Assembly: GCA_964475625.1 (NCBI GenBank)
Contig: CAYYXK010000001.1
Location: 30,935 to 94,934 of the forward strand
Length of the DNA stretch: 64,000 bases
Direction: 5' to 3'
Source of the DNA: an uncultured Thermoplasmata archaeon
Lineage (GTDB): Archaea > Thermoplasmatota > Thermoplasmata > WALJ01
Both the position numbers and the translations under genes were made by a program. The notes beneath the pieces are model-generated. The model had not been told where the DNA came from. It saw only the letters and a list, made by a program, of their open reading frames with translations, and ran no database searches. Below are positions 10,658 to 43,813 of this stretch, piece by piece (the stretch's first letter is position 1; every line of letters starts with the position of its first letter).

Positions 10658-16137
<5,480 letters not shown>

Positions 16138-16145
<8 letters not shown>

Positions 16146-18570
16146 AATGGAAGATACGGATGAACAGAGGATAATCGAAAAACCCGTCGAGGAGGAGATG
16201 AAACACTCCTACATCGACTATGCGATGTCCGTTATAGTAGGCAGAGCGCTCCCTGACGCGAGGGACGGTTTGAAACCGGTACACCGCAGGATACTGTATG
16301 CCATGCAGGACATGGGGATCACATCCACGAAGGCATACAAGAAGAGCGCAAGGATAGTGGGAGAGGTCCTGGGTAAGTATCACCCGCACGGCGACAACGC
16401 CGTATATGACGCACTTGTAAGAATGGCACAGCCCTTCTCGTTGAGGTACCCGCTCATTGACGGGCAGGGTAACTTCGGGAGTGTCGACGGTGACAGTGCG
16501 GCGGCCATGAGATACACCGAGGCCCGGCTCTCGAAGATAGCGGAGTACATGCTGAAGGACATCGAGAAGAACACGGTTGATTTCGTACCGAACTTCGATG
16601 CCAGCCTGAAGGAGCCCGGGGTACTTCCATCGGTCTTTCCGAATCTTCTTGTGAACGGTTCGTCCGGAATAGCCGTGGGAATGGCGACGAACATGGCCCC
16701 CCACAACCTCAATGAGATAATAGACGGGATACTAGCTCTTATGGATGACCCGGAGATGAGCATGCCTGACCTGATGGAATATGTGAAAGGCCCGGATTTC
16801 CCTACGGGAGGTATAATCTACGGGAGCGCTCCGATCTATCAGGCGTATGCCACTGGCAGAGGAGCTGTCAAGGTAAGGGCGAGGACACATATCGAGGAGA
16901 ACGGGAACCGTGAGAGGATAGTTGTCACGGAGATACCCTATATGGTGAACAAGTCCGAGCTTCTGAAGAAGATAGCGGACCTTGTGAAGAACGGGGTCAT
17001 CGAGGGAATATCGGACCTGAGGGACGAGTCGGACCGCAGAGGTATGAGGATAGTCATAGAACTGAAAAGAGATGCGATGTCGGACATAGTTCTCAACCAT
17101 CTCTTCAAACACACACAGATGCAGACCACTTTCGGAATAAACAATGTGGCTCTCGTTGATGGAGTTCCAAGGACGCTCAACCTGAAGGAGCTTATGAACG
17201 AGTTCCTGAAACACAGGAGGACAGTCATACGGAGGAAGACCGAATATGAGCTGAGAAAGGCGGAGGAAAGGGCCCACATACTCGAGGGGCTCCTCATTGC
17301 GCTGGACCACATAGACGAGGTCATAAAGCTCATAAGAGGGTCGAAGAGCGCCGACGAGGCGAAACAGCACCTTATTGCCCGGTTCCTCTTCACCGAAGTT
17401 CAGGCGAAGGCGATACTCGATATGAGGCTTCAGAAACTTACGGGCCTTGAAAGGGAGGCTCTTCGCAGCGAGCACCGGGAACTTATGGAAAAGATAGCGG
17501 ACCTCAAGGACATACTCGCACAGGATGAAAGGATCATGGCGATAATTCGCGAGGACCTTCTTGAGATAAGGGAGAAGTTCGGGGACGAGAGGCGCACCGA
17601 GATAATGGAAAGCAGCGAGGACATAGAGATAGAGGACCTGATACCTGACGAAGATGTCGTTATAACGATGACAAAGGCCGGATATGTGAAGCGCATACCT
17701 CTTGAAACATACAAACAGCAGAGAAGAGGAGGTAAGGGCCTTATCGGAATGGATACGAAGGACGAGGACTTTGTGGTCTCGGCTATGACGACCACCAACC
17801 ACAAGTACATCCTTTTCTTCACGAACATAGGAAGGGTCTACTGGCTGAAGGCATGGCAGATCCCTCAGAGCGGACGGCGTTCAAAAGGAAAGCCCGTTGT
17901 CAATCTGCTCCCGAATCTGGAAAGGGGAGAAAAGATTGCGGCTGCCATACCTGTAAAGGACTTTTCGGAGGGGTACATCGTCTTTGCCACGCGGAAAGGC
18001 ATAATAAAGAAAACCGAGCTCATGGCGTACAGCCGGCCTCGCTCCACTGGAATATGGGCGATAGGCATCAATGAAGGGGATTCCATTGTCGATGTCTCGC
18101 TCTCCTCGGGAGATGACCAGATAGTTCTTGCAACGCGCAACGGATACGCTAACCGCTTCGATGAGAGCGAGGTGAGGCCCATGGGGAGAACCGCACACGG
18201 CGTCCGCGGAATAAGGCTGAAGAGCGATGAGGACGAGGTTGTTTCCATGGATATCGTGCATGAAGATTCCATACTGCTGAGCATAACGGAAAGAGGCTAT
18301 GGAAAGCGCTCTTATGCGAGGGACTACCGAAAGACGCACAGAGGCAGTCACGGAGTGATCGCGATGAGGATAAACGAGAGGAACGGGAAGCTCCTCAGGG
18401 TGCTCGATGTCTCCGATGTGGAAGAGATACTTCTCACAAGCAGGAACGGTATGATGATAAGAGTGCCCGTGGAGCAGATATCCATACATGGCAGGGCCAC
18501 CATGGGTGTGCGGATCATGCGGATGAACGAGGGCGACATCGTTGTGGACGTGGAGCCTCTGGTGGAGTGA
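16138..18570 (+). CDS. gyrA: DNA gyrase subunit A
   Basis: '[29 protein letters not shown]' is present, with the active-site Tyr region and C-terminal beta-pinwheel repeats. Confidence 0.95.
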
Positions 18571-23292: not shown

Positions 23293-24132
23293 ATGCTTAA
23301 ACGGCCGATTGCGGTGCTCATGTTCGTTATTCTTATGGTGCCTGTGTTCTCTACGGCAGCCGATGTATTCGCTCCAACCGTAGAGGACTATGTCTGCAAT
23401 CCCCGTAACACCAACTTCCTTTTCCTGAACTTCTCCGGAGATACGATATATCCCGGAAATTCCGGCAATCTGGTATTTCGCCTCAATAATCCGTATAACA
23501 GAAGCATGGAAGATATCAATCTTACTGCCGAGATATACGCGTGGGCGGACCTTGAGGACTACAGGGATATCGACGCCAAGTTCCCAAACCCTCCGACCAT
23601 GAAACAGGGTACGGGGCGCATATATTCGGACCATGTCGAGGAACTTCTGCCTTCCATGAACATAACATATGACCTGAAAATAAACACGAAGGAAAACACG
23701 CTTGAAGGGACATATTATGTGCGGTTTACCCTTGAATTCGACTATTCCAATTCCAGCAAGAATTCCGCCACACACTTCATCATGCGCTCCATGTCATACT
23801 ACACGAAAGAACAATGGGATTATGCGACAAGGGTGCCGAGCGAATCGGACCTTCCTTATTATCGGCATGGTGTGAACATGACATATCTGAGCCGTTTCTA
23901 CCCTGTTGATGCCATAATTCCCTTCACAAGCTTCTCGGTGCACAGAGGAATACCAAAATGGCCTCTTTTCGTACTCGGTGGCGGAGCCGTGTTCTTCGCG
24001 GTGCTGGCATACATGTATTACATGAATGACAATTATGGAAAATACAAATGGCTAGATGAGAAGACCAAGCAGATGTCTGGCAAATACCAGAAGTTTAGGC
24101 GTAGACTTTACGAGAGGGCGCGCCAGAAGTGA
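23293..24132 (+). CDS. Hypothetical secreted/membrane glycoprotein (N-terminal signal peptide, C-terminal TM)
   Basis: Its signal peptide is 'MLKRPIAVLMFVILMVPVFSTAA'. It has many N-x-S/T sequons and a C-terminal 'LFVLGGGAVFFAVLAYMYY' helix. Its 3' end overlaps the convergent gene by 81 bp. Confidence 0.4.
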   Translation: MLKRPIAVLMFVILMVPVFSTAADVFAPTVEDYVCNPRNTNFLFLNFSGDTIYPGNSGNLVFRLNNPYNRSMEDINLTAEIYAWADLEDYRDIDAKFPNPPTMKQGTGRIYSDHVEELLPSMNITYDLKINTKENTLEGTYYVRFTLEFDYSNSSKNSATHFIMRSMSYYTKEQWDYATRVPSESDLPYYRHGVNMTYLSRFYPVDAIIPFTSFSVHRGIPKWPLFVLGGGAVFFAVLAYMYYMNDNYGKYKWLDEKTKQMSGKYQKFRRRLYERARQK

Positions 24133-25182
24133 GGGGTGGTCTATATCACCCAACTCCGAGATTATTCTTTTTGAGTTCGCATTGTTGAGTTCATGCATTA
24201 TCTTCTCCATATCCTTTTCGGATAACTCGGCGTATACCTTACGGATGTACATGCCGTTCTTAATCTCCTTTCCCACATCGGACTGCCATTTTTTCTGATA
24301 CGATGACAGGTCCGTGCTGTCTTTTTCGAGAGCGGATACCGTGCTGTCGACGAGAATCCTCGCCGCACTAAGGCCCGGATACAGGCCTCCTCCAGAGAGG
24401 GGCTTCACCTGAACTGCTGCGTCCCCCACCAATGCCACATTTTTATCGGTTATCTTTCTCGAATTGCCTATAGGTATGGCACCGCCGTGATATGTGATAG
24501 AACGGCTTTCAAAGCCCGGAAAACGTCTTTTCAATATCGAAAGGGCAGGTGGATTTCCGGGACTTGCCGTGCCTATGAGAGATCCATCCTCCATCGGTAT
24601 CTGCCATGTAAAGAAGGCACTGTCCGGTTCCGGCCATATCCTTATCTCATCGACTTCATCCGTTATATGTGCCTGAAAAGCACCGAGCACCTCTTTTGGC
24701 CGACCCATGTCGAACGCCCTTGCAACGGAGGAGGTCACCCCGTCGGCACCTATCAAAACCCTTGACCTTATGGTAATGCTCTCTCCGGATGAGCGGAGGT
24801 CCGACAGGATCCCTCTTTCGTCCCGTCTGAATGATACGGCACGGGTTCCGAGCATTATGTCCGCACCTTTACGCACTGCCTTTTCCATCAATTCCCGGTC
24901 AAACATCGCCCTATCCATGGCAACGGCCTTTACATCCGATGCGGATATATCGAGCTCTTCTTTTCCGGTGAATATCTTCGCCTTCTTAAACTCTCTGAGC
25001 CTGACCCTCTGGCTTGAGCCTGCCATACGCAGAACGGCCGGGCTTACAAGCCCCGAACACTGCACCGGCCTGCCTACCTCACGGTGTTCCTCAACTATAA
25101 GCACGGAAAAACCTCTTTCCGCAAGAGCGCCCGCAACTGCTGCTCCCGACGGGCCGCCGCCCACAATAATGGCATCATACAT
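24052..25182 (-). CDS. Geranylgeranyl reductase family FAD-dependent oxidoreductase (digeranylgeranylglycerophospholipid reductase-like)
   Basis: It has an N-terminal 'YDAIIVGGGPSGAA' FAD motif and is the length of a GGR. Confidence 0.75.
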   Translation of the reverse strand: MYDAIIVGGGPSGAAVAGALAERGFSVLIVEEHREVGRPVQCSGLVSPAVLRMAGSSQRVRLREFKKAKIFTGKEELDISASDVKAVAMDRAMFDRELMEKAVRKGADIMLGTRAVSFRRDERGILSDLRSSGESITIRSRVLIGADGVTSSVARAFDMGRPKEVLGAFQAHITDEVDEIRIWPEPDSAFFTWQIPMEDGSLIGTASPGNPPALSILKRRFPGFESRSITYHGGAIPIGNSRKITDKNVALVGDAAVQVKPLSGGGLYPGLSAARILVDSTVSALEKDSTDLSSYQKKWQSDVGKEIKNGMYIRKVYAELSEKDMEKIMHELNNANSKRIISELGDIDHPSLLARPLVKSTPKLLVFARHLLGLLI

Positions 25183-25186
25183 GCTA

Positions 25187-25927
25187 TCACTTCGGAGTTA
25201 TTCCTCTCTCGGTGACGGAATATTCCATTATTCCGAGCCGTTCGGGGTGGTTCCTTACCTTCTGAATTATGAGGAAATGACTGAAATGCTTTTCTTTTCT
25301 CTGCTTTTCGAGCTCCACTATGGCATCCACTATCTCTTCCACACCGCTCTCCGTCTTAGTTTCATGGACCCCTTTCAGCATGGTTACCAGCACGACCCCC
25401 CTCTGATGCTGACTGTGTGCCTTGATAGTCCGTAGGGCGGACATGACATGCTGCGGCTCATAATATTCGAGAAAGAAATCCAGCGAGTCTACTATCACCC
25501 TGAAAGGCGGCTCCAGTTTGGATATCTCATATGTTACCTTTGTAAGGAAATTGACACCCTTTGATATGTCCTGTTTCCTGAGCCTCTTGAGATCCCTTAT
25601 TGTAACTCCTTCCTGTCTGTAACGACTTATCTCCACCTCTCTGGCAAGAACCTTCTCATAGTATTCTCCCCCTATGTTCACTATGTTTATGTTCGGATCC
25701 CATCCGAAGTGCTCCATGGTCTTCTTGACATCCTCGTCCCTTTCATTTGTCGTGAAATAGATCACGTTTTCCTTTCCAACGCCTGCCGATGCGAACTGCT
25801 TGGCGAAGAGCTCTGTGCCGGAACCCGGAGACCCGTGTACCAGTATCATGAATCCTTCGGGAACTCCCCCCAGGACCTCGTCCAGTTCGGGTATGCCTAT
25901 GCTTCTGTGTCCCGGCTCCATTACCAT
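25187..25927 (-). CDS. KaiC/RecA-superfamily ATPase-like protein (FlaH/ArlH-like) with Walker A lacking the lysine (GSPGSGTE)
   Basis: 'GIPELDEVLGGVPEGFMILVHGSPGSGTELFAKQF' is the KaiC-like N-terminus. The gene is translationally coupled to the upstream gene. Confidence 0.55.
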   Translation of the reverse strand: MVMEPGHRSIGIPELDEVLGGVPEGFMILVHGSPGSGTELFAKQFASAGVGKENVIYFTTNERDEDVKKTMEHFGWDPNINIVNIGGEYYEKVLAREVEISRYRQEGVTIRDLKRLRKQDISKGVNFLTKVTYEISKLEPPFRVIVDSLDFFLEYYEPQHVMSALRTIKAHSQHQRGVVLVTMLKGVHETKTESGVEEIVDAIVELEKQRKEKHFSHFLIIQKVRNHPERLGIMEYSVTERGITPK

Positions 25928-26496
25928 TCCTCCGTTATCTCTATTCTCTCGTCACAGACCATGGTGAGAGCACGGTTTATCTCATCCGAGCTCTGCTCCT
26001 TTATCGAAAGGACTATCGTATACGCATTCTTAGAGCGCAGGCTGTTGAAAAGTATGTGCATGAACTCGGAAAGTATGCTTATGTTGTTGTGTATGGCCAG
26101 AGAGTTTATCGAATCTATGAAGATGAGTTTTTCCTTTTTGGGGTCCAGTTTTCTCAACAGGAATTCGATCTTAAGCATTATGTTCTCAAGCATCGTTGCA
26201 CTCTCCACATACAAAACATGGCCGTTGGTGGCCTTCTTGTCCATAAGTACGCTGGAACCGCAGTCAACGAAATATATGTGGTCTCTCTTCATCTCCAGAA
26301 GGTCCATAACATTGATTATGGATGCCGCCGGAAGTGTGGAGTTTATGTATATGACATCCAGCTTCTTCTCTATGGATATCTTTTCGGTAAGGGCCCTTAT
26401 CACATCGAAATAGCTGTCGGAATTTACTTCCAGCCCTATGACCGATGCTTCGCTTATGCCTTTCAGTTTCTCATACGCCTGATCCATGACGCCCAT
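25921..26496 (-). CDS. Degenerate KaiC/RecA-like domain protein (no Walker A; Walker-B-like 'LIFIDSINSL')
   Basis: Its secondary-structure-like pattern resembles a RecA fold. Its start and stop overlap the flanking KaiC-like genes. Confidence 0.4.
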   Translation of the reverse strand: MGVMDQAYEKLKGISEASVIGLEVNSDSYFDVIRALTEKISIEKKLDVIYINSTLPAASIINVMDLLEMKRDHIYFVDCGSSVLMDKKATNGHVLYVESATMLENIMLKIEFLLRKLDPKKEKLIFIDSINSLAIHNNISILSEFMHILFNSLRSKNAYTIVLSIKEQSSDEINRALTMVCDERIEITEEW

Positions 26497-27266
26497 CAGT
26501 CCCCACCTCCTTTGAGCATGGGAACCAGAAGAACCCCTATCGGCGTCAGGTCCAGCACATATTTTGCCCTCGAATGGCTGGTGCCTCTCATTTTCACGAC
26601 CTGAAGTGTTCTCAGAAGGTCGCCTCTTCTCTCATAATTTCCCATGAGTATTATCCCGTCGGCTATGGCCTCCTCAACCCCGTATGTGGAGTATCTGGCA
26701 TCCGAAGGAAGTATCTCGGAAACAAGCAGGCTGGTGCAGCCCAACTGAGACAGTTCTTTTCCGAGTTTCAGTATGAAATCCCGTATCTTTTCCTCTGTTT
26801 TTAACTGGAAACAGACCGATGTCACCGAATCTATCACAAGTCTCTTTATGTTGAGTTCCTTGACTATGTCCCCCAACGCATTGACGAGAAGGTCTATCTC
26901 CTCAAAGGAGAACTCCGATTTCTGAAGCCCGAGCCGCTCGTATATGGCGGGCATGTCTATGAATATCAATTTTCCCTTTTTAAGAAGGTCCTCGCTGAAG
27001 AATTCATATGGTATCAGGTTTGCCAGAAGTTTCTCGGATGCCTCTGTGACCGAAACGAAAAGGCAGTTCTCTCCATACAAGGCTCCGTGCACAAGGAACT
27101 CGAGACTTGTGGTGGTCTTCCCAGTACCACAGCTACCTGTTATGAGCACCGTGTTTCCCCTCGGTATCCCTCCGTTCAAAATTGCATCCAGCGTATCCAC
27201 ACCAGTCTTACAGCGGGGTCTGTCAGAAGATTTCACGGTGTTTTTCTTATGGGTGTTGAGAGGCAT
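26496..27266 (-). CDS. KaiC-like RecA-superfamily ATPase with intact Walker A/B
   Basis: 'GVDTLDAILNGGIPRGNTVLITGSCGTGKTTTSLEF' is present, with Walker B 'LVIDSVTS'. Confidence 0.7.
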   Translation of the reverse strand: MPLNTHKKNTVKSSDRPRCKTGVDTLDAILNGGIPRGNTVLITGSCGTGKTTTSLEFLVHGALYGENCLFVSVTEASEKLLANLIPYEFFSEDLLKKGKLIFIDMPAIYERLGLQKSEFSFEEIDLLVNALGDIVKELNIKRLVIDSVTSVCFQLKTEEKIRDFILKLGKELSQLGCTSLLVSEILPSDARYSTYGVEEAIADGIILMGNYERRGDLLRTLQVVKMRGTSHSRAKYVLDLTPIGVLLVPMLKGGGD

Positions 27267-27460
27267 ATGATTGGAGAGGATAACTACCTGCTTATATCTT
27301 TTTTGCCACGAGCTTCGAACAGACGGTGTTTTTTATCGAAAAACACGCACGACAACGAAAAGACACGGAACGACGAGATGCGCAAAAATAATACTTGTTA
27401 ATTCATGATGTTGAAAAGTAATTTTTATTTGCTGACATCTTTTAATTAAGCTCAGAAAGT

Positions 27461-27544: not shown

Positions 27545-28009
27545 ATGAAGTGCCCGTACTGTGGAAACGTAGACACAAAGGTGGTGGATTCCCGCTACTC
27601 CGAAGACATGGGAGCCATACGCAGAAGAAGAGAATGTCTCAACTGCGGAAAACGATTTACGACCTATGAAAGGGTGGAAATCGCGCCGATAATAGTGATA
27701 AAAAAGAACGGTGTGAAAGAGGAATTCGACCCCGAGAAGATACGTAAAGGGATGATGCGGGCCTGCGAGAAGAGACCGATAAGCCCGGAGGACATAGACA
27801 TAGCGGTGCAGGAGATAGAACGGGAAATACGGCAGATGGAGTCCATAGAGATCCCGAGTATGGAGATAGGGGAACTAGTAATGAGAAAGCTCCGCTCCAT
27901 GGACAAGGTCGCATACATACGCTTTGCCTCGGTCTATCGCGAATTCGAGGATGTCGAAACATTCCAGAAGGAAATAAACATGATATTGGAGAAATACGGA
28001 GGAAGATAG
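27545..28009 (+). CDS. nrdR: Transcriptional repressor NrdR (zinc ribbon + ATP-cone)
   Basis: 'MKCPYCG...DTKVVDSR...RRRRECLNCGKRFTTYERVE' is the NrdR signature. Confidence 0.85.
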   Translation: MKCPYCGNVDTKVVDSRYSEDMGAIRRRRECLNCGKRFTTYERVEIAPIIVIKKNGVKEEFDPEKIRKGMMRACEKRPISPEDIDIAVQEIEREIRQMESIEIPSMEIGELVMRKLRSMDKVAYIRFASVYREFEDVETFQKEINMILEKYGGR

Positions 28010-28010
28010 A

Positions 28011-30470
28011 ATGGTACTGGAAAAAGTAAGAAAAAGAGACGGAAGAATAGTGGAATTCGATCAGGAAAAGATAACTGAGGCCATCCAGAAGGCGTTCCTT
28101 GCAAAAGGATACATGAGTGAGACCGCAAAACTGCTGTCAAAGAGCCTTTCGGACAAGGTAGTCGGAAAACTTGAGAAGAGATTCTCGGATGAAATCCCGG
28201 AGATAGAAGATATACAGGACCTCGTTGAGGCGACTCTCATAGAGGAGAATTTCAGCAAGGTGGCCAAAGCGTACATACTTTACAGAAGGCAGAGGGAGGA
28301 TGTAAGAAAGCTCAAAGAGACCATGCTTGAAGTGGACAAGGTCATGGACGGATATCTCGACCAGATAGACTGGAGGGTGAATGAGAACAGCAATTCCGGC
28401 TATTCCCTTTCGGGCTTGCTGATGCACGCGGCAGGCTCCGTTGTTGCGAACTATGTTCTCACGAAGGTCTATCCGAAAGAGATTGCGGATGCGCACAGAG
28501 AAGGGGATTTCCATATCCACGACCTTTCAATGGGAATTGCGGGATACTGTGCCGGTTGGAGCATAAAACAGCTTCTGACGGAGGGATTCAACGGAGTGGA
28601 GGGCAAGGTGGCATCATCTCCCCCGAAACACCTTGAAACAGCTCTCGGACAGATGGTCAATTTCCTCGGAACTCTGCAGAATGAGTGGGCCGGTGCGATG
28701 GCATTCTCATCCTTCGATACATATCTCGCACCCTTCGTGCGCTCGGACAACCTTGACTATAAGCAGGTGAAACAGGCGGTACAGCAGTTCGTTTTCAGTC
28801 TGAATGTCGCCAGCAGATGGGGCGGCCAGACACCTTTCACAAACATAACTCTGGACTGGGTCGTTCCCGAGGATATGAAAGATGAACCGGCCATAGTCGG
28901 AGGAAAACTTGCCGATTTCACATACGGAGAGCTTCAGAAGGAAATGGACCTCATCAACAAAGCGTTCATAGAAGTGATGATAGAAGGAGATGCGAACGGA
29001 AGGCCCTTTACCTTCCCGATACCCACATACAATATAACCGATGACTTCGACTGGGACAGCGAAAACGCCACTCTTCTTTTCGATATGACCGCCAAGTACG
29101 GACTCCCGTATTTCCAGAACTTCATAAACAGTGACCTCAACCCGGGAGATGTAAGGTCCATGTGCTGCAGACTGCAGCTTAACCTTAAGGAATTGAAGGC
29201 GAAGACAGGCGGTCTTTTCGGCTCCGGAGAATGCACGGGTTCGATAGGTGTCGTAACATTGAACATGCCCCGCATAGGCTATCTTTCAAAGACGAAAGAG
29301 GAGTTCTTCGAAAGGGTATCCAAACTCATGGACCTTGCGCAGGAATCCCTCGAGATAAAGAGAAAGATCGTCAACATGAACATGGAGAACGGACTTCTTC
29401 CGTACACGAAGAGATATCTCGGAACCCTGGACAACCATTTCTCCACGATAGGGCTCGTCGGAATGAACGAAGCCTCACTGAATTTCATGGGAAAGGACAT
29501 AGGTACTGAAGACGGAAAGAAGTTCGCGATAGAGGTCCTCAACTTCATGAGGGATAAGCTTACCCAGTATCAGGAGGAGACCGGACACATATACAACCTT
29601 GAAGCGACTCCTGCCGAAGGCACCTCATACAGACTTGCAAGGATTGATAAACAGAAATATCCCGATATCATAACTTCAGGCGAGGATGAGCCGTATTACA
29701 CCAATTCCACACAGCTCCCAGTCGGATATACGGACGACATATTTGAGGCGCTCGACCTTCAGGACGACCTTCAGAAACTGTACACCGGTGGTACTGTCCT
29801 TCACGGTTTCCTAGGAGAGGAAATAGACAATGCGGAATCCTGCAAACTTCTCGTAAGAAGGATCGCCGAGAACTACAGACTCCCGTACTACACGATAACA
29901 CCTACATTCTCCATATGCAAACAGCATGGATATATATCCGGGGAGCACTTCACATGTCCGAAATGCGGTGAGCCGACAGAGGTATATTCAAGGGTCGTGG
30001 GATACTTCAGACCGGTCCAGAACTGGAACAAGGGAAAGAAGGAGGAGTTCAAGGAGAGGCTGGAGTTCAACATAAAGAAGAGAGGTATACGGCCTGCGCT
30101 CCGCCCTTCCGTCAATAAGGAATCGGACAGCCCCGCTTCGAATATGATGGCTTCTTCATCGCCTGCCGAAGGAGGAGAGGTTGCCGCAGAGATAACTCCG
30201 ATAAGCTCGGGTATCCTTGATGACAAGAAGGTCTCGAAATATGTATTCTTCTGGGCCAACCACTGCCCTCACTGCCCTGCCGTAAAGATGTATCTGAACG
30301 ATAAGGCGGATGGTATTCCCGGAGAGCACATAAACGTCGATACAGAAGAAGGCCGCGAAATGGCTCTGAATTACGATATAATAGGCACACCCACGGTCAT
30401 ACTTTTCGATGAAGGCGGGAACGAACTGGCCCGGGTGAACAATATCGGAGGATTGCGTAAATGGTTGTAA
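28011..30470 (+). CDS. nrdD: Anaerobic ribonucleoside-triphosphate reductase (class III) with N-terminal ATP-cone and C-terminal thioredoxin-like (CPHC) extension
   Basis: It has an ATP-cone, the glycyl-radical motif 'SRVVGYFRPV', and a Cys cluster 'CPKCGE'. The extra C-terminal ~110 aa contain 'WANHCPHCP'. GGAGGA is the SD at 27997-28002. Confidence 0.85.
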   Translation: MVLEKVRKRDGRIVEFDQEKITEAIQKAFLAKGYMSETAKLLSKSLSDKVVGKLEKRFSDEIPEIEDIQDLVEATLIEENFSKVAKAYILYRRQREDVRKLKETMLEVDKVMDGYLDQIDWRVNENSNSGYSLSGLLMHAAGSVVANYVLTKVYPKEIADAHREGDFHIHDLSMGIAGYCAGWSIKQLLTEGFNGVEGKVASSPPKHLETALGQMVNFLGTLQNEWAGAMAFSSFDTYLAPFVRSDNLDYKQVKQAVQQFVFSLNVASRWGGQTPFTNITLDWVVPEDMKDEPAIVGGKLADFTYGELQKEMDLINKAFIEVMIEGDANGRPFTFPIPTYNITDDFDWDSENATLLFDMTAKYGLPYFQNFINSDLNPGDVRSMCCRLQLNLKELKAKTGGLFGSGECTGSIGVVTLNMPRIGYLSKTKEEFFERVSKLMDLAQESLEIKRKIVNMNMENGLLPYTKRYLGTLDNHFSTIGLVGMNEASLNFMGKDIGTEDGKKFAIEVLNFMRDKLTQYQEETGHIYNLEATPAEGTSYRLARIDKQKYPDIITSGEDEPYYTNSTQLPVGYTDDIFEALDLQDDLQKLYTGGTVLHGFLGEEIDNAESCKLLVRRIAENYRLPYYTITPTFSICKQHGYISGEHFTCPKCGEPTEVYSRVVGYFRPVQNWNKGKKEEFKERLEFNIKKRGIRPALRPSVNKESDSPASNMMASSSPAEGGEVAAEITPISSGILDDKKVSKYVFFWANHCPHCPAVKMYLNDKADGIPGEHINVDTEEGREMALNYDIIGTPTVILFDEGGNELARVNNIGGLRKWL

Positions 30471-31162
30471 TGAACGGGATGCAGAAGACCTCGTTCATAG
30501 ACTATCCCGGAAAGATAGTCACGACCATCTTCTTCGGCAACTGCAATTTCCGCTGCCCATACTGCCACAATTCGGACCTTGTCTTCAACAAGGACCTTCC
30601 GCGGATCGACCACGGAGTACTTCTTGAACATCTTGAGATGCGCAAGGGAAAACTGGATGGCATATGCATAACCGGAGGGGAGCCCACTCTCCACACGGAC
30701 CTTCCCGAGCTCATCAGAGATGTTAAGGAAAAGGGATTCCTCGTCAAACTGGACAGCAACGGAACAAATCCGCGTATGCTTGAAGAACTCTTCTCCGAAG
30801 ATCTCGTGGATTACATAGCGATGGATATCAAGGCTCCCAAGGAAAGGTACTCCGATGTCGTGAAGGTGAATGTCAACATGGATATCATCGAAAACAGCAT
30901 AGATCTGATAAGAGATATGGCTCCGGACTATGAATTCAGGACCACGATACCCAGAGAGCTTCTGAGCCCGGATGACATAATGCGCATAGGAGAGTGGATA
31001 AAAGGCTCCAAAAGATATGCGCTCCAGCAGTTCAAGCCGAACAAACCTCTTGACCCGGCATGCATGGACTGTCATGGGTACACCAAGAAGGAGATGGACG
31101 CCATGGCTGAAAGACTGAAAGGCTATTTCGACGAGGTTCTGGTGCGAGCGAAGGACGACTGA
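30470..31162 (+). CDS. nrdG: Anaerobic RNR activating protein (radical SAM)
   Basis: 'FGNCNFRCPYCHN' is present. Its start overlaps the nrdD stop (TAATG); an alternative ATG lies at 30461. Confidence 0.8.
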   Translation: MNGMQKTSFIDYPGKIVTTIFFGNCNFRCPYCHNSDLVFNKDLPRIDHGVLLEHLEMRKGKLDGICITGGEPTLHTDLPELIRDVKEKGFLVKLDSNGTNPRMLEELFSEDLVDYIAMDIKAPKERYSDVVKVNVNMDIIENSIDLIRDMAPDYEFRTTIPRELLSPDDIMRIGEWIKGSKRYALQQFKPNKPLDPACMDCHGYTKKEMDAMAERLKGYFDEVLVRAKDD

Positions 31163-32532: not shown

Positions 32533-34212
32533 ATGGCAGAAACAGAAAAAGTTTCGGAAAAGGAATCAAAAAAGTTCGATCTCTTCTCACTGATGGAGCC
32601 GTTTATCCGTAAGACTCCCAAAAAGGTGATGATACCTGCTAAAGAGGCAGAGGACCGGACGGACCAGGGTTCTATATACACCAACATCCCCCCCATAACG
32701 GACCCCAATGTAGATGTGCTTGAGATAAAGCCCATTGTAAAGGATTTTTCATATTCTCGGATATTGTATGACAATGCTAACAGTGAATATATATATCAGG
32801 CAATAGAGCCGCAGCTCAGTGAAAAGGAACAGGGATATCTCATTCTTCTGAAAGACTCCATGAGCAAGACCATGGACTATGAGTGGGAAAAACTGGCCGA
32901 CCATGATAAAAAAGAATACCTTATCGAGAGCATAGAAAGCTTCATCAAAAGCCGGAACCTTGACCTTCCCGAAGTAAGCAAAGAGAAGATAATGTACTAT
33001 CTTGTCCGTGATTTCATAGGTTACGGTCCGATCGATATTCTCATGAATGACGAGGACATAGAGGACATCTCCTGTGACGGTACCAACATACCTCTCTTCA
33101 TATTCCATAAGAAATACGAGTCGATAAAAACAGATGTGAAGTTTCTGGAGGACGAGGTACTTGATTCGTTCATAATCTCTCTGGGACAGCGCTGCGGAAA
33201 GAACATATCTGTGGCAAACCCGATTCTGGACGGTACCAGCAAGGAGGGGCACAGGGTTCAGGCAACATATTCCCATGAGGTTACCACCCGCGGTTCCTCG
33301 TTCACCATAAGGCGTTTCAAAGAAAAGCCCTTCACACCGGTTGAGCTGATAAAGTTCAATACCGCATCCGCTGAAATGATAGCGTATCTGTGGATGATGG
33401 TCGAGAACGGTAAATCGCTAATAGTCTGCGGTGGAACTGCGTGCGGTAAAACCGCGACGCTCAATGCGACAAGCCTCTTCATCCCTCCGGGTGCAAAAAT
33501 CGTTACAATGGAGGACACAAGGGAGATAAACCTGCCACATGAGAACTGGATTCCCAGTACCACGAGGAGTGGTGTCGGCGAAAGAGGCGCTGACGGTAAG
33601 GCCGCCGGTGAGATAGACATGTACGACCTCGTCAGGGCCGCTCTGAGGCAAAGGCCAAACTATATCATAGTGGGAGAGGTGAGAGGTAAGGAGACATACA
33701 CCATGTTCCAGGCCATGGCAACGGGACATACGACATATACGACCATGCACGCCGACTCCGTCAAGTCCATGGTGCACAGGCTTGAGAATCCGCCGATCAA
33801 TACGCCCAGAATCCTTCTTACCGCACTCAACCTTGTCATAATCCAGACCTTTGCGAGGCTGAAGGACCTTCAGGTCAGGAGGATAAAGGAGATTGTGGAG
33901 ATAGTCGGCTTCGAAGCGGAAACGAATGAACTTGTTACGAATCAGGTCTATGCATGGAATCAGATAACGGATACTTTTCTATATAAGGGACACAGTTTCA
34001 TACTCGATGCTATCATGGAAATGAAAAATATGACCCACGAAGACATGCAGAACGAGATGAATCGCAGGGTCGAGGTCATAGAGTATATGGTTAAAAAAAA
34101 CATAGTGGACTACCGGGAAATAGCCAAGATAATCACCGGCTATTACAAAGACCCGGAGGAGACCATAGAGCGCATAAGAGATGAACTTGAGGTGGAATCC
34201 GATGAGTCCTGA
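32533..34212 (+). CDS. FlaI/TadA-like type IV filament assembly ATPase (paralog 1)
   Basis: Walker A 'CGGTACGKTATLNA' is present, along with 'GEVRGKE', 'MATGH', and an archaeal FlaI-type N-terminal domain. Confidence 0.8.
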   Translation: MAETEKVSEKESKKFDLFSLMEPFIRKTPKKVMIPAKEAEDRTDQGSIYTNIPPITDPNVDVLEIKPIVKDFSYSRILYDNANSEYIYQAIEPQLSEKEQGYLILLKDSMSKTMDYEWEKLADHDKKEYLIESIESFIKSRNLDLPEVSKEKIMYYLVRDFIGYGPIDILMNDEDIEDISCDGTNIPLFIFHKKYESIKTDVKFLEDEVLDSFIISLGQRCGKNISVANPILDGTSKEGHRVQATYSHEVTTRGSSFTIRRFKEKPFTPVELIKFNTASAEMIAYLWMMVENGKSLIVCGGTACGKTATLNATSLFIPPGAKIVTMEDTREINLPHENWIPSTTRSGVGERGADGKAAGEIDMYDLVRAALRQRPNYIIVGEVRGKETYTMFQAMATGHTTYTTMHADSVKSMVHRLENPPINTPRILLTALNLVIIQTFARLKDLQVRRIKEIVEIVGFEAETNELVTNQVYAWNQITDTFLYKGHSFILDAIMEMKNMTHEDMQNEMNRRVEVIEYMVKKNIVDYREIAKIITGYYKDPEETIERIRDELEVESDES

Positions 34213-35218
34213 AGTTAGCGATGCATTCAAAGGCCTGGATACGAAAAAATGGAGCCTGTTCCATACGAAAAGAGTCAAGGCCGAAGATGTCATAGAGGGT
34301 TATGGTCCGCACATCGTTTATCTCCCGAAAGAGGCCGTCCCCAGTCAAATAAGACTTACACCCTTTCAACAGACCGCACTTCGTATCATGGGGAAAAAGG
34401 CGGAAAAAGAGATCGAAAAATATCCGGATTTGGATGACTGGCTTCTGAAATCCCGTATGCGTATGAGGGGCGAAGAGTATCTGGCATATGCTCTTCTGAC
34501 GACATATATCATGTGGGCTATTGCGGGCGTTCTTGCAGTTGTATTCATCGCACTCTATTCCGTGATCGGATTCCTTTCCATATTGATCGCACTTATAATG
34601 GTCATGATCGCATTTGTGATTAAACCGTTGATACTTTCGATGCCCAAATCGAAGGCCAAGGGCAGAGGAAGAGATATAGACAAGAAACTCGCGTCCGCCA
34701 TGTCCTTCGTGGCATCACTCTCATCCGCAGATGTGAATGTGGATGTCATATTCAAAGAGCTTGCAAAACAGCCTATATATGGGGAGATACAGAAGGAGGC
34801 CGAATGGATAACCAGAGACACCGAGTTGCTAGGTGTTGACATACTCACGGCCATAAAAGAAGGTGCCCTGCGCAGCCCTTCGGTCAAGTGGCAGGACTTC
34901 CTTCAGGGTGTGGTCACAACCTCCACATCGGGGGGACAGCTCAAGCCTTACTTCATAGTCAAATTACAGGAGTTCGAAAAGGACAGCCAGCTTGACAACA
35001 AAAGAAGGGCCGAAACTCTGGGAATGATGGCGGAATCGTATGTCACCGTCGTGGTCGCATTCCCGCTGTTCCTGATAGTCATCATAGCTATAATGGCGAT
35101 AACGAACGGACAGGCGGAATCAAGCATACCCATGCTCTATGCGGTAGATGCGCTGATGATACCTGGCTCACAGGGTATTTTCCTTTACATCATGTGGGGC
35201 CTTACACAGGAGGCATAA
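34202..35218 (+). CDS. TadB/TadC-like platform protein, N-terminal half (single T2SSF-type domain, multiple TM)
   Basis: It has polytopic TM segments around a cytoplasmic helical domain. It overlaps the ATPase stop by 11 nt. Confidence 0.6.
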   Translation: MSPEVSDAFKGLDTKKWSLFHTKRVKAEDVIEGYGPHIVYLPKEAVPSQIRLTPFQQTALRIMGKKAEKEIEKYPDLDDWLLKSRMRMRGEEYLAYALLTTYIMWAIAGVLAVVFIALYSVIGFLSILIALIMVMIAFVIKPLILSMPKSKAKGRGRDIDKKLASAMSFVASLSSADVNVDVIFKELAKQPIYGEIQKEAEWITRDTELLGVDILTAIKEGALRSPSVKWQDFLQGVVTTSTSGGQLKPYFIVKLQEFEKDSQLDNKRRAETLGMMAESYVTVVVAFPLFLIVIIAIMAITNGQAESSIPMLYAVDALMIPGSQGIFLYIMWGLTQEA

Positions 35219-35219
35219 G

Positions 35220-36137
35220 ATGTCCGATGACAGCTTTGATCTGGAAAAAGCGAAAGCCACCTCAAAAAAGATACTCTACGCATCCGTAGGAATGGCGGTA
35301 ATTTTCATATTCGTGGGTATCCTTGAGATGAACGGTTCGATGAAGACCATGTTTGATGCCTTCGACTATTTCATATTCGCCATACTTGCGATGACGGGGC
35401 CCTATGGCATATACAAAGGAAAGATAGACAAAACCATAGATGAGATAGAGAAAAGGCTTCCCGACTTCCTAAGAGATGTGGCGGAAGCGGGAAGATTCGG
35501 AATGACACTCGCGGATGCCATAGTTGTCGCCGCATCCGGGAGATATGGTAAACTGACCCCGGAAATAAAGAAAATGGCCGCACAGATACAGTGGGGAGTT
35601 CCGGCCACTCAGGCCCTCAAATTATTTGCCGAGAGGATAGATACTCCTCTCGTGAGGAGGGTCACCACCATAGTCATAAAATCTTCGGATGCCGGAGGTA
35701 ATGTCGCTGATGTTCTTTCTATGGTCTCTCACAGTGTAAAAGATGTCCACCATGCAAAGGAAGAATTAAGCATAGAGATGGTCACTTATCTGGCTGTTAT
35801 CTATATCTCATTCATGGTTTTCATAGCCACGATACTCATCCTTGACCTGACATTCCTTCCCCAGATGGAACAGGCCGGAGAAGCCCTGTCCCGTTCCGCG
35901 GATATAAGTAGTGGCGCAGGTTCCGTGACACTGATACAATCCGAATACATACCGGAGATCAAGTTCATATTCACACTCACCATCATAATACACGGAGTGG
36001 GAGATGGATTGGTGGCGGGAATACTATCTAAAGGCAAGTTCTCGGAAGGCATGAAGCATGCATTTATCATGGTCCTTATAGGTTTCATCACTTTAAGGGT
36101 CATGTTCGGCGGATTGAACCTTGCAGGAGGCGGATAA
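35220..36137 (+). CDS. TadB/TadC-like platform protein, C-terminal half (second T2SSF-type domain)
   Basis: Its architecture is similar to the preceding ORF. It starts 1 nt after the preceding stop. Confidence 0.6.
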   Translation: MSDDSFDLEKAKATSKKILYASVGMAVIFIFVGILEMNGSMKTMFDAFDYFIFAILAMTGPYGIYKGKIDKTIDEIEKRLPDFLRDVAEAGRFGMTLADAIVVAASGRYGKLTPEIKKMAAQIQWGVPATQALKLFAERIDTPLVRRVTTIVIKSSDAGGNVADVLSMVSHSVKDVHHAKEELSIEMVTYLAVIYISFMVFIATILILDLTFLPQMEQAGEALSRSADISSGAGSVTLIQSEYIPEIKFIFTLTIIIHGVGDGLVAGILSKGKFSEGMKHAFIMVLIGFITLRVMFGGLNLAGGG

Positions 36138-37817
36138 ATGGCGGGAAGCCAAGTGGTAGAAAAAGTGGAGAAAAAGGAGGATACCGCTCCCCCACCGGGA
36201 ATCAAGGACAAAGTGATATCGTTCGCAATAGGAAAGACGCCGGTCAAGATAATGCTTCCGAAGGAAGAGACATCCAGAGACCTCTCAAAAGACATCACAC
36301 TGATACCCAAGATAGTGGATATGCATGTCAATGAAATCGAGATAGAACCCGTTGAAGAGCCGTATTCATATGTAAGGATAAAGTACGATACGATATCGAA
36401 CGAATATATGTATGAAGTAATAGAGCCCCAGTTGAACGATGATGAGGATGAGGTTTTGATAGCGGTCAGGAAGGCACTTGTCGATAGGTTTAACCTCGTC
36501 GGCAAGGAGGAAATGAACAATAGAGAGGAGATTCTCAGGGAACTCACGGAGAAGGCCATAGACGAAACCGGTATAGAACTTAGCGAGATATCAAGGAAAC
36601 GGATATTCTATTACACGAGAAGAGACTTCCTCGGCTTCGGAGCCATACATGTCGCTATGATAGAGAAACAAGTGGAAGACATATCTTGTGATGGCGTCAA
36701 CATACCTATATATATCTATCACAGAAAATATGGCTCCATAAAGTCGAACATAAAGTTTGAAACGGCGGAGGAACTCGATAGTTTCGTGGTATGGCTGGCA
36801 CAGAGGTCGGGAAAGCACATCTCCGTGGCAAGTCCCATGCTTGATGCCACCATGCCGGATGGCTCCAGGTTAAATGCCACACTCGGCACCCATGTGACCA
36901 AGAGGGGTTCGTCGTTCACAATAAGGCGATTCAAAGAGGACCCGTTTACCCCGATAGACCTGATAAAGTTCAAGACGATGAGTTCCGAAATGATGGCATA
37001 TCTCTGGATTGCCATAGAGAACGGCCAGTCCATGCTGATATGTGGAGGTACCGCATCGGGTAAAACCACCACACTCAATGCTGTCCTGCTGTTCATCCCG
37101 CCTCAGATGAAGATAGTCAGTATCGAGGATACTCGAGAACTCAATTTACCCCATGAGAACTGGGTGCCTACCCTTACCAGAAGCGGTTTCGGTGCCAAAA
37201 ACCCCATAACCGGAAAGGCTGCGGGGGAGATAGATATGTTCGACCTTCTGGCGGCGGCACTGAGGCAGAGGCCGCAGTACATGATGGTGGGAGAGGTCAG
37301 GGGTTCGGAAGCGTATGTTGTCTTCCAGGCCATGGCAACGGGAAAGAGCGCATACACGACATTCCACGCGGAGGATGTTCAGGCAATGGTGCACAGGCTT
37401 GAAAACGACCCGATAAACCTGCCGAGGACCCTGATCGCCGCTCTGGATATCGTGCTTCTGCAGGGACAGGTGAAGGTCGGGAAGAACATGACAAGAAGGG
37501 TCAAAGGTCTTATCGAGATAGTCGGTACGGACCCGCAGACCGATGAACTCATCACGAACAATGCATATATGTGGAACCCTGCAGACGATACCTTCAATTT
37601 CAGCGGCCACAGCTATGTCTATGAAAAGGTCGCATTGACAAAGAACTGGTCGGCCCGGGAGATGGAAAGAGAGGTCAAAAGAAGAAAGGACATACTTGAT
37701 TACATGAAGAAGATAGGGGTGAGCAACTACAAAGAGGTCGCCAGAATAGTCTCCGCATACTACAAGGACAAGAAGAAGGTCATGGAAGAGGTCAGAAGGG
37801 TTCTCGAAGAGGAATGA
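36138..37817 (+). CDS. FlaI/TadA-like type IV filament assembly ATPase (paralog 2)
   Basis: Walker A 'CGGTASGKTTTLNA' is present, along with 'GEVRGSE' and 'MATGK'. Its start abuts the preceding stop (TAAATG). Confidence 0.8.
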   Translation: MAGSQVVEKVEKKEDTAPPPGIKDKVISFAIGKTPVKIMLPKEETSRDLSKDITLIPKIVDMHVNEIEIEPVEEPYSYVRIKYDTISNEYMYEVIEPQLNDDEDEVLIAVRKALVDRFNLVGKEEMNNREEILRELTEKAIDETGIELSEISRKRIFYYTRRDFLGFGAIHVAMIEKQVEDISCDGVNIPIYIYHRKYGSIKSNIKFETAEELDSFVVWLAQRSGKHISVASPMLDATMPDGSRLNATLGTHVTKRGSSFTIRRFKEDPFTPIDLIKFKTMSSEMMAYLWIAIENGQSMLICGGTASGKTTTLNAVLLFIPPQMKIVSIEDTRELNLPHENWVPTLTRSGFGAKNPITGKAAGEIDMFDLLAAALRQRPQYMMVGEVRGSEAYVVFQAMATGKSAYTTFHAEDVQAMVHRLENDPINLPRTLIAALDIVLLQGQVKVGKNMTRRVKGLIEIVGTDPQTDELITNNAYMWNPADDTFNFSGHSYVYEKVALTKNWSAREMEREVKRRKDILDYMKKIGVSNYKEVARIVSAYYKDKKKVMEEVRRVLEEE

Positions 37818-41529: not shown

Positions 41530-43416
41530 ATGAAGAGAAGGTTGGTTCTTGTAACAGCGGCCCTGATTTTCGCGGCCATGCAGTTCTCTATGCTGGGAGT
41601 CATGATGGGTGACGCATATCCTCCCGTGACCGGTGGAGATGTAGAGTGTGATACGACCCTGCAGATGATACCTATGACCCACACCATAGGCGGAGGTACG
41701 ATACACTGGCATATAACAGGCGACAATGCAAGGGAACTGAGAATGCTCATACTGGACCGCTTGGACAATGCGACTATAAACGACATCGCTCCGAATGATA
41801 CTGGCCAAGGTAGGAGAATCGGAGAAATAGATGAGTCCGAAATACGGGCCTATGTTGCAGCAGGAGATCATTCTTTCCTACAGAACTACATTCAGGGAAT
41901 TCGAAAAATGTGGATTCGTGTTGATAATGATACTAGAACATTTGAAGAGAATCCCTCTGGAGAGAACTATGATACGGTTATGTTTCAGGGTGTAGAGATA
42001 ACCCGTGCATCTCTTTCCAACAATAATATATATCAAGATACGGATGGTCTTATTGGACAGACGGCCGATTCCAACGCAGACATAGATATCTTCATGACCA
42101 TAAGTATGAAAGATACTGTTCGCATTACTGATATAGACCTTTCCAACCCCACCATACTTAAAGCGCCCTTTGAATGCCTTACAATGTTCGATGAGAACGG
42201 GGATGTCGTTGATTCCGTGGAATATCGTGGAGACGGGGGCATGACCCACTGGACTATTAGCATCGGCTTTGATAGCTTCTATAATCCTTCTGTAAAAACC
42301 GGCACTCTGTATCTCATAAGAACCCCTGCGGGAGAAGTGTACAGATACAGCACGGATGTCCAAGACGGCGGTGTTATGGAAGAAGGAATGCAGCACAGTG
42401 ATTTTAATCCCATTGAAAACCCCCAGATACTTTTCATAATAATGATAGTCTTCGGCTATCTGGCTGTTGCGCTCCCCACACATTTTTATCTGAAATACAG
42501 GAGCAGATATCCCAAAAGATATCGCGTAGAGGCAAAAAGGATCAAATGGCTGCACTGGCTCGGAAGAATTTTCCTTCTTTTGATGCTCTTGCTCTATTTC
42601 TGGCCCATGATCGGGACATTCTATTTCTCAGGTATCATGTTCATAGGTATGAGCATCGGATTGGTTGCTCTCTCCGCAGTGCTCAGTAAAGTGACATATG
42701 AAAGGGCGGAGGCGGCCATACCCCCCGAATATTTCGAAGAGAAAAAGGCCATCGGGAAGGCGCAACCTGCAAAAAAGAGAAAGAAAACCCCTACGCCTCC
42801 TGTTGCGGCATCATATGAACCGGATAAGGACAAGATACACTGCATAAGGTGTGGTGCATTGATAACCATAAAGGAAGGAGAGAACCTTCTGAAAGTGAAA
42901 TGCCCCGTATGCGGAGCTGTACAAAAAAGAGTTGAGCGCGGATACAACCACCTCATACTGGACAGCAGCCTGAAAAACACATATAACATGTTGGCTGATT
43001 TTCTGAGGGACGGGGACGTGGCTCTGTGCCTCAGTACCAGTATGCCGGGCAAACTGAAAAGGACCTATCACCTTTCGGGAAAACTGAAATGTATATGGCT
43101 CAGCGCGGCGGGAGGAAAAGACACCCTTGATCCGTCGAACATAGACAAGATATCCGAGACCATAGATCGTTTCGCGGAAAAATACCCGGCATCAATCATA
43201 CTGGTGGACGGGCTTGAGTACCTTGTCGTGGAACACGGCTTCGATGCGGTATCGAGATTCCTCAAAAAGGTGATGGACACGGCATCCATGAGGGATATAA
43301 CACTGATGGTTCCAATTAACCCTGCTTCTTTAAGCAGCGATGAACTTACCATATTGAAGGGTGAGTTCGACAGAGTGGAGGCCCTGGAGGATATGGATGA
43401 AAGGGAATTCTTCTGA
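41530..43416 (+). CDS. Membrane receptor-like protein. It has a signal peptide and ~300-aa extracellular domain, TM helices, a cytoplasmic zinc ribbon, and a C-terminal degenerate KaiC/RecA-like (DUF835-like) domain
   Basis: The signal peptide is 'MKRRLVLVTAALIFAAMQF'. Hydrophobic helices lie at ~aa 295-380. It has 'CIRCG...CPVCG' and a C-terminal 'IILVDGLEYLVVEHGFD...ITLMVPINP' domain. GGGGAGG is the SD before the ATG. Confidence 0.5.
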   Translation: MKRRLVLVTAALIFAAMQFSMLGVMMGDAYPPVTGGDVECDTTLQMIPMTHTIGGGTIHWHITGDNARELRMLILDRLDNATINDIAPNDTGQGRRIGEIDESEIRAYVAAGDHSFLQNYIQGIRKMWIRVDNDTRTFEENPSGENYDTVMFQGVEITRASLSNNNIYQDTDGLIGQTADSNADIDIFMTISMKDTVRITDIDLSNPTILKAPFECLTMFDENGDVVDSVEYRGDGGMTHWTISIGFDSFYNPSVKTGTLYLIRTPAGEVYRYSTDVQDGGVMEEGMQHSDFNPIENPQILFIIMIVFGYLAVALPTHFYLKYRSRYPKRYRVEAKRIKWLHWLGRIFLLLMLLLYFWPMIGTFYFSGIMFIGMSIGLVALSAVLSKVTYERAEAAIPPEYFEEKKAIGKAQPAKKRKKTPTPPVAASYEPDKDKIHCIRCGALITIKEGENLLKVKCPVCGAVQKRVERGYNHLILDSSLKNTYNMLADFLRDGDVALCLSTSMPGKLKRTYHLSGKLKCIWLSAAGGKDTLDPSNIDKISETIDRFAEKYPASIILVDGLEYLVVEHGFDAVSRFLKKVMDTASMRDITLMVPINPASLSSDELTILKGEFDRVEALEDMDEREFF

Positions 43417-43417
43417 G

Positions 43418-43813
43418 ATGCGGACGGCCGTAGCCGCACTTTTTCTTGGAGAAGGTAGAGAGGCCCTCACCGAGGACGAGGCCCTCCTTTCCATTTCCGT
43501 AAAAAGAAGATGGTTCTCTCCCGAGCTTGCAAAGATATTCATAGAGAATGCGCTCTCTTCGGGCCTCATCAAACGTGATGGAAAATACATCAAACCCTCT
43601 TTCGAATACGGCGAACTGGAGATTCCTTATGGATATTATCCCGATGATAGCGTCCTCGCGACAGGCGAAGAAACCGAAGATATACCCGTTGATGCGCTCT
43701 CCATGGACTATCCGTTTACGGATGAGGTCAAGTCTCTGATATATCTTATGAGAAAGGGGGAGGATGTGCGGAACAAACTGGATGCCGTAGAAAAGAAGCT
43801 CATGGAAAACTGA
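43418..43813 (+). CDS. Hypothetical conserved archaeal protein, coupled to the upstream receptor-like gene
   Basis: The ATG lies 1 nt after the preceding stop, and the ORF-track start at 43361 is an in-frame extension into the upstream gene. There is no recognisable catalytic motif. Confidence 0.4.
   Translation: MRTAVAALFLGEGREALTEDEALLSISVKRRWFSPELAKIFIENALSSGLIKRDGKYIKPSFEYGELEIPYGYYPDDSVLATGEETEDIPVDALSMDYPFTDEVKSLIYLMRKGEDVRNKLDAVEKKLMEN

Follow-up and report, generated by a model that had tools for sequence, protein, structure and literature searches.

A KaiC-family operon with two inactivated paralogues in Thermoplasmatota and its possible link to type IV pili

We analysed three consecutive minus-strand genes, here called A, B and C, in a stretch of 64,000 nucleotides from contig CAYYXK010000001.1 (assembly GCA_964475625.1) of an uncultured Thermoplasmata archaeon; this whole stretch is referred to below as the window. 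The three genes appear to form one operon, in which a KaiC-type ATPase with intact motifs is accompanied by two paralogues that probably lost catalysis long ago. We document their gene structure, their family and fold assignment, the state of their motifs, their conservation throughout the phylum Thermoplasmatota, and the adjacency of the operon to pilin genes. The function that we propose on the basis of these data is that of a regulatory complex of KaiC and inactivated KaiC proteins tied to type IV pili (T4P), and we judge the chances that this proposal is correct to be about even. Classical signalling systems are few in archaea, and KaiC-like ATPases with their inactivated relatives have been proposed as substitutes, almost none of which have been studied. 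The operon offers a clean, phylum-wide case, fixed in composition and with a clear candidate output, namely PilA-type pilins.

Family assignment and motif states of the three proteins

We determined the motif states from 77 gene A, 77 gene B and 41 gene C orthologues out of the fetched loci, with the register set by family-versus-family profile alignment, which gave probabilities of 97.8% for A-C, 26% for B-A and 5% for B-C. Judged by its sequence, gene A encodes an unambiguous single-domain KaiC: it matches the Pfam ATPase/KaiC family (PF06745) with an E-value of 1.5e-57 and 195 bits, the gathering score being 26.6 bits, and its residues 18-249 align to the CI domain of KaiC, with a CI-like GVEE motif present. 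The Walker A motif G-x-x-G-T-G-K-T (GSCGTGKTT in the window copy) and the Walker B D-S are invariant in all 77 orthologues, and so are the T74-E75 pair and the finger K225-M-R227-G-T-x-H-S-R. T74-E75 aligns with the Glu-Glu of KaiC, the second catalytic glutamate alone being kept, and the C-terminal tail LLVPLLKGG is conserved as well. Among the three proteins, only that of gene A combines all the features of a catalytically competent KaiC, i.e., Walker A, the Walker B aspartate, the catalytic glutamate and the Lys/Arg finger.

Gene C also matches Pfam KaiC above the gathering score (5e-29, 101.7 bits), and its copies in the window and in Aciduliprofundum share about 60% identity. Its P-loop, GSPGSGTE in the window and G-x-P-G-[SA]-G-[TMLAIS]-E over the 41 orthologues, has lysine in none of them and glutamate at the Ser/Thr position in 40. 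The catalytic glutamate (E62, aligned with E75 of gene A) is retained in 41/41 orthologues, the Walker B aspartate is kept, and the finger residues K223 and R225 are found in 41/41 and 39/41, respectively. Strong conservation of the dead subunits, gene C among them, suggests that their contacts with other proteins are constrained, and the G-x-P-G-x-G-x-E loop of gene C would be a defined case of P-loop retirement in which the fold and the trans-acting finger were preserved.

Gene B is the most diverged of the three. The window copy scores below every Pfam threshold, including that of DUF835 (13 bits, gathering score 33.1), and neither the single sequence nor a profile brought up any PDB sequence, a comparison of folds being the only approach that succeeded. 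Of 16 members of its family compared with Pfam, KaiC was hit by 15, DUF7504 by 10, Elong_Iki1 by 10, and DUF835 by seven (the last with E<=0.01). Its predicted structure is a compact RecA/KaiC core (predicted local distance difference test, pLDDT, 84; predicted template modelling score, pTM, 0.82). The family profile gave probabilities of about 1% against single gene A, gene C and DUF835 sequences, values that are uninformative. None of the 77 orthologues has a glycine-rich loop, Ile or Leu occupies the position of the catalytic glutamate, and the Walker B aspartate is the only catalytic motif left. The protein stops ahead of the finger strands and carries no Lys/Arg finger, and the N-terminal segment of a KaiC domain is missing too. 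It has invariant motifs of its own, namely YxTSTIP, FVDC, ESPTMLEN and DSINSLAIHNN.

The family-wide alignments thus point to one competent site, that of gene A, and to two ancient, fixed losses in genes B and C. These two would accordingly fall under the concept of 'iKaiC', a KaiC-like fold whose nucleotide-binding loop has been destroyed throughout the family; the name was given to DUF835 and MEDS with reference to a hub proposal of 2017 (Makarova et al. 2017, as cited in Galperin et al. 2018, PMC5847659). A first-pass annotation, made from the letters of the window alone, had described all three proteins as KaiC/RecA-like, and our profile and fold searches point to no other group. It had read a canonical Walker A in gene A, no P-loop but a Walker-B-like strand in gene B, and a P-loop without the invariant lysine in gene C, all of which hold for the orthologues at large, and its picture of one active ATPase with two pseudo-ATPases agrees with the motif counts.

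The profile of the gene B family also picks up the last ~180 residues of some long proteins (e.g., P0284, P0289 and P0312 of the set P0273-P0320), which reach 1776 aa and carry TPR, CARDB/BatD-like or DUF835 regions. A dead KaiC module like gene B therefore seems to be used as a terminal domain of receptor-like proteins as well. Distant gene B-like (DUF7504) proteins had no KaiC neighbour in the contexts inspected, so that the pattern does not reach them. Membership in anti-phage defence was rejected, as gene A gave only a weak, partial match to PADLOC mad8 (30 bits) and genes B and C gave none.

Phylogenetic distribution and gene order

A pattern scan with one genome per species returned 224 gene B relatives, and 80 loci were kept. 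All 80 belong to Thermoplasmata, Thermoplasmatota or Methanomassiliicoccales metagenome-assembled genomes (MAGs), some of them titled only 'Methanobacteriota', 'Euryarchaeota' or 'archaeon', and the operon is confined to Thermoplasmatota in all collections searched. The closest relative, with 92-95% identity, is a Thermoplasmata MAG (locus L012). Locus L008 is from Aciduliprofundum MAR08-339, whose genes lie at 301237-303321 of CP003168 (L008 6660-8744). Homologues numbered 709 for gene B, 330 for gene C and >1200 for a query containing gene A, and the same gene order came up again in 73 genome loci of species representatives and in 50 metagenome loci. Therefore, A, B and C are real genes rather than chance open reading frames (ORFs).

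Gene A lies directly upstream of gene B in essentially all loci, with -8 to +5 nt between the A stop and the B start in 73/73. Gene C follows gene B in 35 of the 60 loci having enough downstream sequence, and A-B alone is found in 24; the spacing from the B stop to the C start is -11 to +4 nt in 35 of the 36 loci measured. Among 80 metagenome loci that were retrieved independently, by way of gene C, gene B precedes gene C in 60/60 cases, and A-B-C is complete in 50/50. Thus, A-B is the core of the operon and gene C is an accessory, present in about 60% of species, since it is absent in about 40% of the species with A-B and never found without them.

The first-pass annotation had named homologues fused into a standard double-domain KaiC as evidence that would speak against it. 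A search using an in-frame A-B ORF from locus L065 found no true fusion of this kind. This ORF (L065 4-1275, on a single soil MAG contig) holds A and B in one reading frame and lacks ~25 residues at the N-terminus of B; we do not rely on it. The complete MAG chromosome CP070767 has gene A broken into two ORFs (L009 6659-7429 / L056 9230-10000), beside intact genes B and C and three intact pilin genes. Either arrangement may reflect true variation or an error in sequencing. The apparent A-B fusions P0391-P0396 and P0510, with their differing breakpoints, internal deletions and no contig on record, were treated as chimeric assemblies; such entries could mislead domain-fusion analyses.

Pilin genes downstream of the operon

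The commonest neighbour of the operon, by far, is a family of ~160-aa proteins with the class III signal peptide RKxEEAVSPVIATILMVAITVVLAA. One to three copies directly follow the operon, in the same orientation, in 46/60 of the genome loci and 55/65 of the metagenome loci. The gap between operon and pilin gene in the genome loci has a median of 130 nt and is -3 to 10 nt in five cases, and pilins follow both the A-B and the A-B-C architecture. The proteins are of the PilA type (Pilin_N/TIGR02537), and the profile of the family matches the solved archaeal pilus subunits 8fj5, 8gi2, 9myg and 8rey. Other pilin genes detected within the pilin-bearing loci of ~20 kb amount to one extra copy in one locus. 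The first-pass annotation had suggested checking whether the trio co-occurs with the FlaI-like module or the receptor gene at 41530 in other genomes; both accompany it only in the closest relative, and the conserved partner is the set of pilin genes instead. We regard the conserved pilin link as the most useful new aspect of the operon, as it makes the function testable.

Proposed function and points against it

Since PilA-type pilin genes directly follow the operon in most Thermoplasmatota, and by analogy with ArlH and CirA (see below), control of T4P or of the pilin pool would be the most likely output of the operon. Most likely, the three proteins come together in one complex, for which conserved gene order, tight junctions and co-occurrence give indirect support; gene A would be its sole subunit that binds and turns over ATP, and hence the sole nucleotide-dependent switch. 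Gene C, whose own pocket seems unusable, could complete or modulate a neighbouring gene A site in trans, because it retains the Lys/Arg finger and the catalytic glutamate. Gene B, with neither pocket nor finger, would play the part of an adaptor or cap, much as inactivated KaiC domains of the DUF835 type do on archaeal receptors. The complex would perhaps dock on pilus ATPases, as ArlH does on ArlI.

Machinery of this kind is encoded in the window at 32533-37817 (+), 5 kb upstream of the operon and on the opposite strand. Two FlaI-family ATPases of 559 aa each, at 32533-34212 and 36138-37817, flank two T2SSF/TadC-like half-platform genes; the ATPases score 421 and 442 bits, below the FlaI equivalog cut-off of 550. 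One may speculate that there is a connection between the pair of dead subunits and the pair of pilus ATPases. In a more specific version, A, B and C would be obligate members of a mixed RecA-like ring, single or double, that docks on the two-ATPase, split-platform machine and chooses which ATPase is engaged. We consider this version unlikely. If it were true, a single kind of active site, made of the A pocket and the C finger, would be spaced by dead subunits, the complex would be a prokaryotic counterpart of Elp456 or of RAD51 paralogue complexes, and pili would be switched between assembly and another state.

Several observations weigh against a pilus-linked regulatory complex. Firstly, no pilin gene was found in the 64-kb window, where a strict regular expression, a pilin hidden Markov model and a FlaFind-like pattern returned nothing credible, and the pilin adjacency is missing in the clade of the window (L012-L016), in Aciduliprofundum-like genomes and in a few other loci. 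In the window clade, a gene of the geranylgeranyl-reductase family holds the place that pilins have in most other Thermoplasmatota; in the Aciduliprofundum-like genomes, gene C is followed, with a gap or overlap of ~4 nt, by a DUF763 protein of ~361 aa without an NCBIfam match (L008 8749-9834; L010 8744-9832). Secondly, a pilus ATPase locus near the operon is found only in the window and in L012, so this adjacency is not conserved. Thirdly, because several upstream housekeeping genes are likewise syntenic, in 23-27 loci, the pilin adjacency may in part reflect shared descent and not a functional link. Fourthly, the threonine at the first of the two catalytic glutamates of KaiC means that turnover by gene A may be slow or absent. 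Finally, as gene C is missing in about 40% of the species having A-B, a fixed A:B:C stoichiometry cannot be general.

Alternative explanations

The alternative that survives best is a pilus-independent signalling hub of KaiC and iKaiC that senses or times some state of the cell and signals to other targets, with the downstream pilins being inherited synteny without functional meaning; we hold this to be possible, if on the unlikely side. It would agree with the proposal in the literature that KaiC-like proteins act as broad hubs, with the lineage-dependent variation of the downstream genes described above, and with the synteny of the upstream housekeeping genes. In addition, a receptor that could feed such a hub is present in the window: the gene at 41530-43416 (+), which overlaps a DUF2240 gene (43397-43813, +) by 20 nt, encodes a protein of 628 aa that has a hydrophobic segment at its N-terminus and a DUF835 (iKaiC) domain (89 bits) at its C-terminus, and is a possible input to KaiC-type signalling. 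However, DUF835-like proteins occur near the operon in only two other loci, and the pilins, which outnumber any other neighbour, invariably lie just behind the operon in the same orientation, with gaps that are sometimes 0-10 nt.

We find it very unlikely that the operon is a degenerate double-domain KaiC split into its parts, in which gene A would be the CI ring and gene B (or C) a dead CII-like ring stacked upon it, giving an hourglass- or clock-like timer instead of a mixed ring. Gene A does align best to KaiC CI and has a CI-like motif, gene B always adjoins gene A, with codons that overlap or abut, and the L065 contig has both in one frame. Nevertheless, the positions of the CII phosphosites (S431/T432) are Glu-Ala in gene A according to the domain 2 alignment, gene B is truncated at both ends relative to a KaiC domain, and the other apparent fusions are chimeras with varying breakpoints. 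Moreover, no KaiB or KaiA partner was seen in the operon, and no KaiB- or KaiA-like family was reported among its neighbours in nine contexts. Scores against the equivalog models also fall far short, with 110.8 bits for circ_KaiC (TIGR02655, cut-off 546) and 148 for PRK09302 (cut-off 408). The circadian KaiC of KaiABC was rejected as an identity for gene A on these scores, its single domain of 256 aa and the loss of the CII phosphosites.

Other complexes of diverged RecA-fold paralogues, some without working P-loops and presumed to act in one assembly, are the eukaryotic Elp456, the RAD51 paralogue complexes BCDX2/CX3 and the Shu complex, and all of them appear in our fold-search lists. However, they show no specific sequence relationship to the operon, the matches being under the family thresholds, and their biology is that of tRNA modification and recombination. 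That the three proteins are recombination mediators of the RadA-paralogue type (cf. Rad55-Rad57, the Shu complex and RAD51 paralogues), aiding RadA on DNA, is very unlikely indeed: KaiC and archaeal KaiC-like proteins outscore any recombinase in both sequence and fold searches, no repair gene is a conserved immediate neighbour, and adjacency to nrd genes is seen only in the window and its closest relative. An archaeal Elp456-like ring, with the three paralogues as a hetero-hexamer handling tRNA for Elp3, is exceedingly unlikely, as the combination of a PAXNEB/Elp4, Iki1/Elp5 or Elp6 match over the gathering score with an Elp3 partner was not found, Elp4/5/6 score only 11.5-13.5 against the gene B model in the fold search, and the resemblances to Elongator and recombinases are at the superfamily level only, below family thresholds and below the scores of KaiC-like proteins.

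Relationship to known systems

KaiC-family ATPases in or near archaeal T4P loci have been proposed as regulators, and the T4P-linked KaiC families include some annotated as inactivated, such as arCOG01175 and arCOG03793/DUF835 (Makarova et al. 2016, PMC4858521). The likeness to archaeal KaiC hubs and to FlaH-like partners pointed out in the first-pass annotation is apt, the inactivated domains already being known as iKaiC. As in these regulators, an active single-domain KaiC is encoded here together with KaiC-fold proteins that have a destroyed Walker A, there is a genomic link to T4P, and the window holds a DUF835 receptor. On the other hand, the active gene is followed, in an unchanging order and in Thermoplasmatota only, by two distinct dead paralogues, and the T4P link is to PilA-type pilins that stand alone, not to an ATPase/TadC pair. 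The operon thus fits the KaiC patterns described from 2016 to 2018, and adds to them an architecture of an active KaiC, a short iKaiC, an optional full-length iKaiC, and PilA pilins.

ArlH (FlaH), a KaiC-like switch in the archaellum motor, binds ATP, undergoes autophosphorylation and docks on hexameric ArlI. Genes A and C differ from it, scoring 38.6 and 37.3 bits, respectively, against the NCBIfam ArlH equivalog NF052589 (cut-off 215); no ArlH/FlaH model puts gene C, which lacks the Walker A lysine, over its cut-off. Furthermore, no arl cluster or archaellin was found in the window, and the nearby ATPases are under the FlaI cut-off. CirA of Haloferax volcanii is a KaiC-like motility regulator that suppressor genetics tie to pilins, ArlI and ArlJ. 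It resembles our case in being a KaiC-like protein whose loss alters the behaviour of surface filaments, but it is encoded by a single gene beside arl genes, acts at least partly on transcription, and has no dead paralogue partners described in the study consulted.

The pilus machinery of the window has the same two-ATPase, split-platform layout as that of the CdiP pilus of Cuniculiplasma divulgatum, where the pilin genes lie ~500 kb away, and two ATPases in one locus have likewise been reported for Aciduliprofundum boonei. Because C. divulgatum is cultured, has a solved pilus structure and published transcriptomes, and shares this layout of the machinery, it would allow a direct test of pilus control by KaiC/iKaiC.

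Gene starts, signals and the downstream gene in the window

The coordinates of the operon and its signals are listed in Table 1. The three minus-strand ORFs of 256, 191 and 246 aa given by the first-pass annotation were recovered, and so was the TGATG at the A/B junction, a 1-nt overlap of stop and start. Its second overlap, ATGGTAA at the B/C junction, did not stand up as well. The TAA stop of gene B (25923-25921) is overlapped by two candidate in-frame ATGs of gene C, at 25927 and 25921; the GGAGGA abuts the first of them but precedes the second by 6 nt. Since this spacing favours the second ATG and a public gene call starts there as well, a gene C start at 25921, with a TAATG junction and a 1-nt overlap, is more likely. 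The TATA-like box lies at such a distance from the gene A start that, given the usual archaeal TATA-to-start spacing, the operon transcript would be leaderless or nearly so.

Table 1. Features of the operon and its immediate surroundings (positions in the window)
Feature	Position	Strand	Description
Gene A	26496..27266	minus	Single-domain ATPase of the KaiC family, 256 aa; motifs for nucleotide binding and trans action intact
Gene B	25921..26496	minus	Shortened inactivated KaiC-like protein, 191 aa
Gene C	25187..25921	minus	Full-length KaiC-fold pseudo-ATPase, 244 aa from second ATG (246 aa from 25927)
Shine-Dalgarno-like GGAGGTG	26504..26510	minus	7 nt ahead of gene B start, within the end of gene A; read from sequence
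Shine-Dalgarno-like GGAGGA	25928..25933	minus	6 nt ahead of second ATG of gene C, within the end of gene B; read from sequence
A/T-rich TATA-like box AAAAAAGATATAAG	27291..27304	minus	~26-32 nt upstream of gene A start codon
Geranylgeranyl-reductase-family flavoprotein	24052..25182	minus	376 aa; NCBIfam TIGR02032, 175 bits (cut-off 158.8)

In the window, as in five related genomes (L012-L016), the geranylgeranyl-reductase-family gene starts 4 nt past the gene C stop, and it is likely a fourth gene of the transcript in this lineage only. No reason for joining a lipid/prenyl reductase to a KaiC module is apparent.

Other genes in the window

Divergent from the operon lies an archaeal nrdR-nrdD-nrdG set (27545-31162, +). 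In its NrdD (819 aa), a thioredoxin-like domain bearing a CPHC motif is fused to the C-terminal side of the reductase. Further away, a gene at 12720-16145 (+) encodes an Eco57I/MmeI-type restriction-modification enzyme of 1141 aa and is placed between two gyrase-like ORFs, 10709-12646 and 16138-18570, which, from their N-termini read by eye, we take to be gyrB and gyrA; the restriction-modification gene overlaps the start of the gyrA-like ORF by 8 nt.

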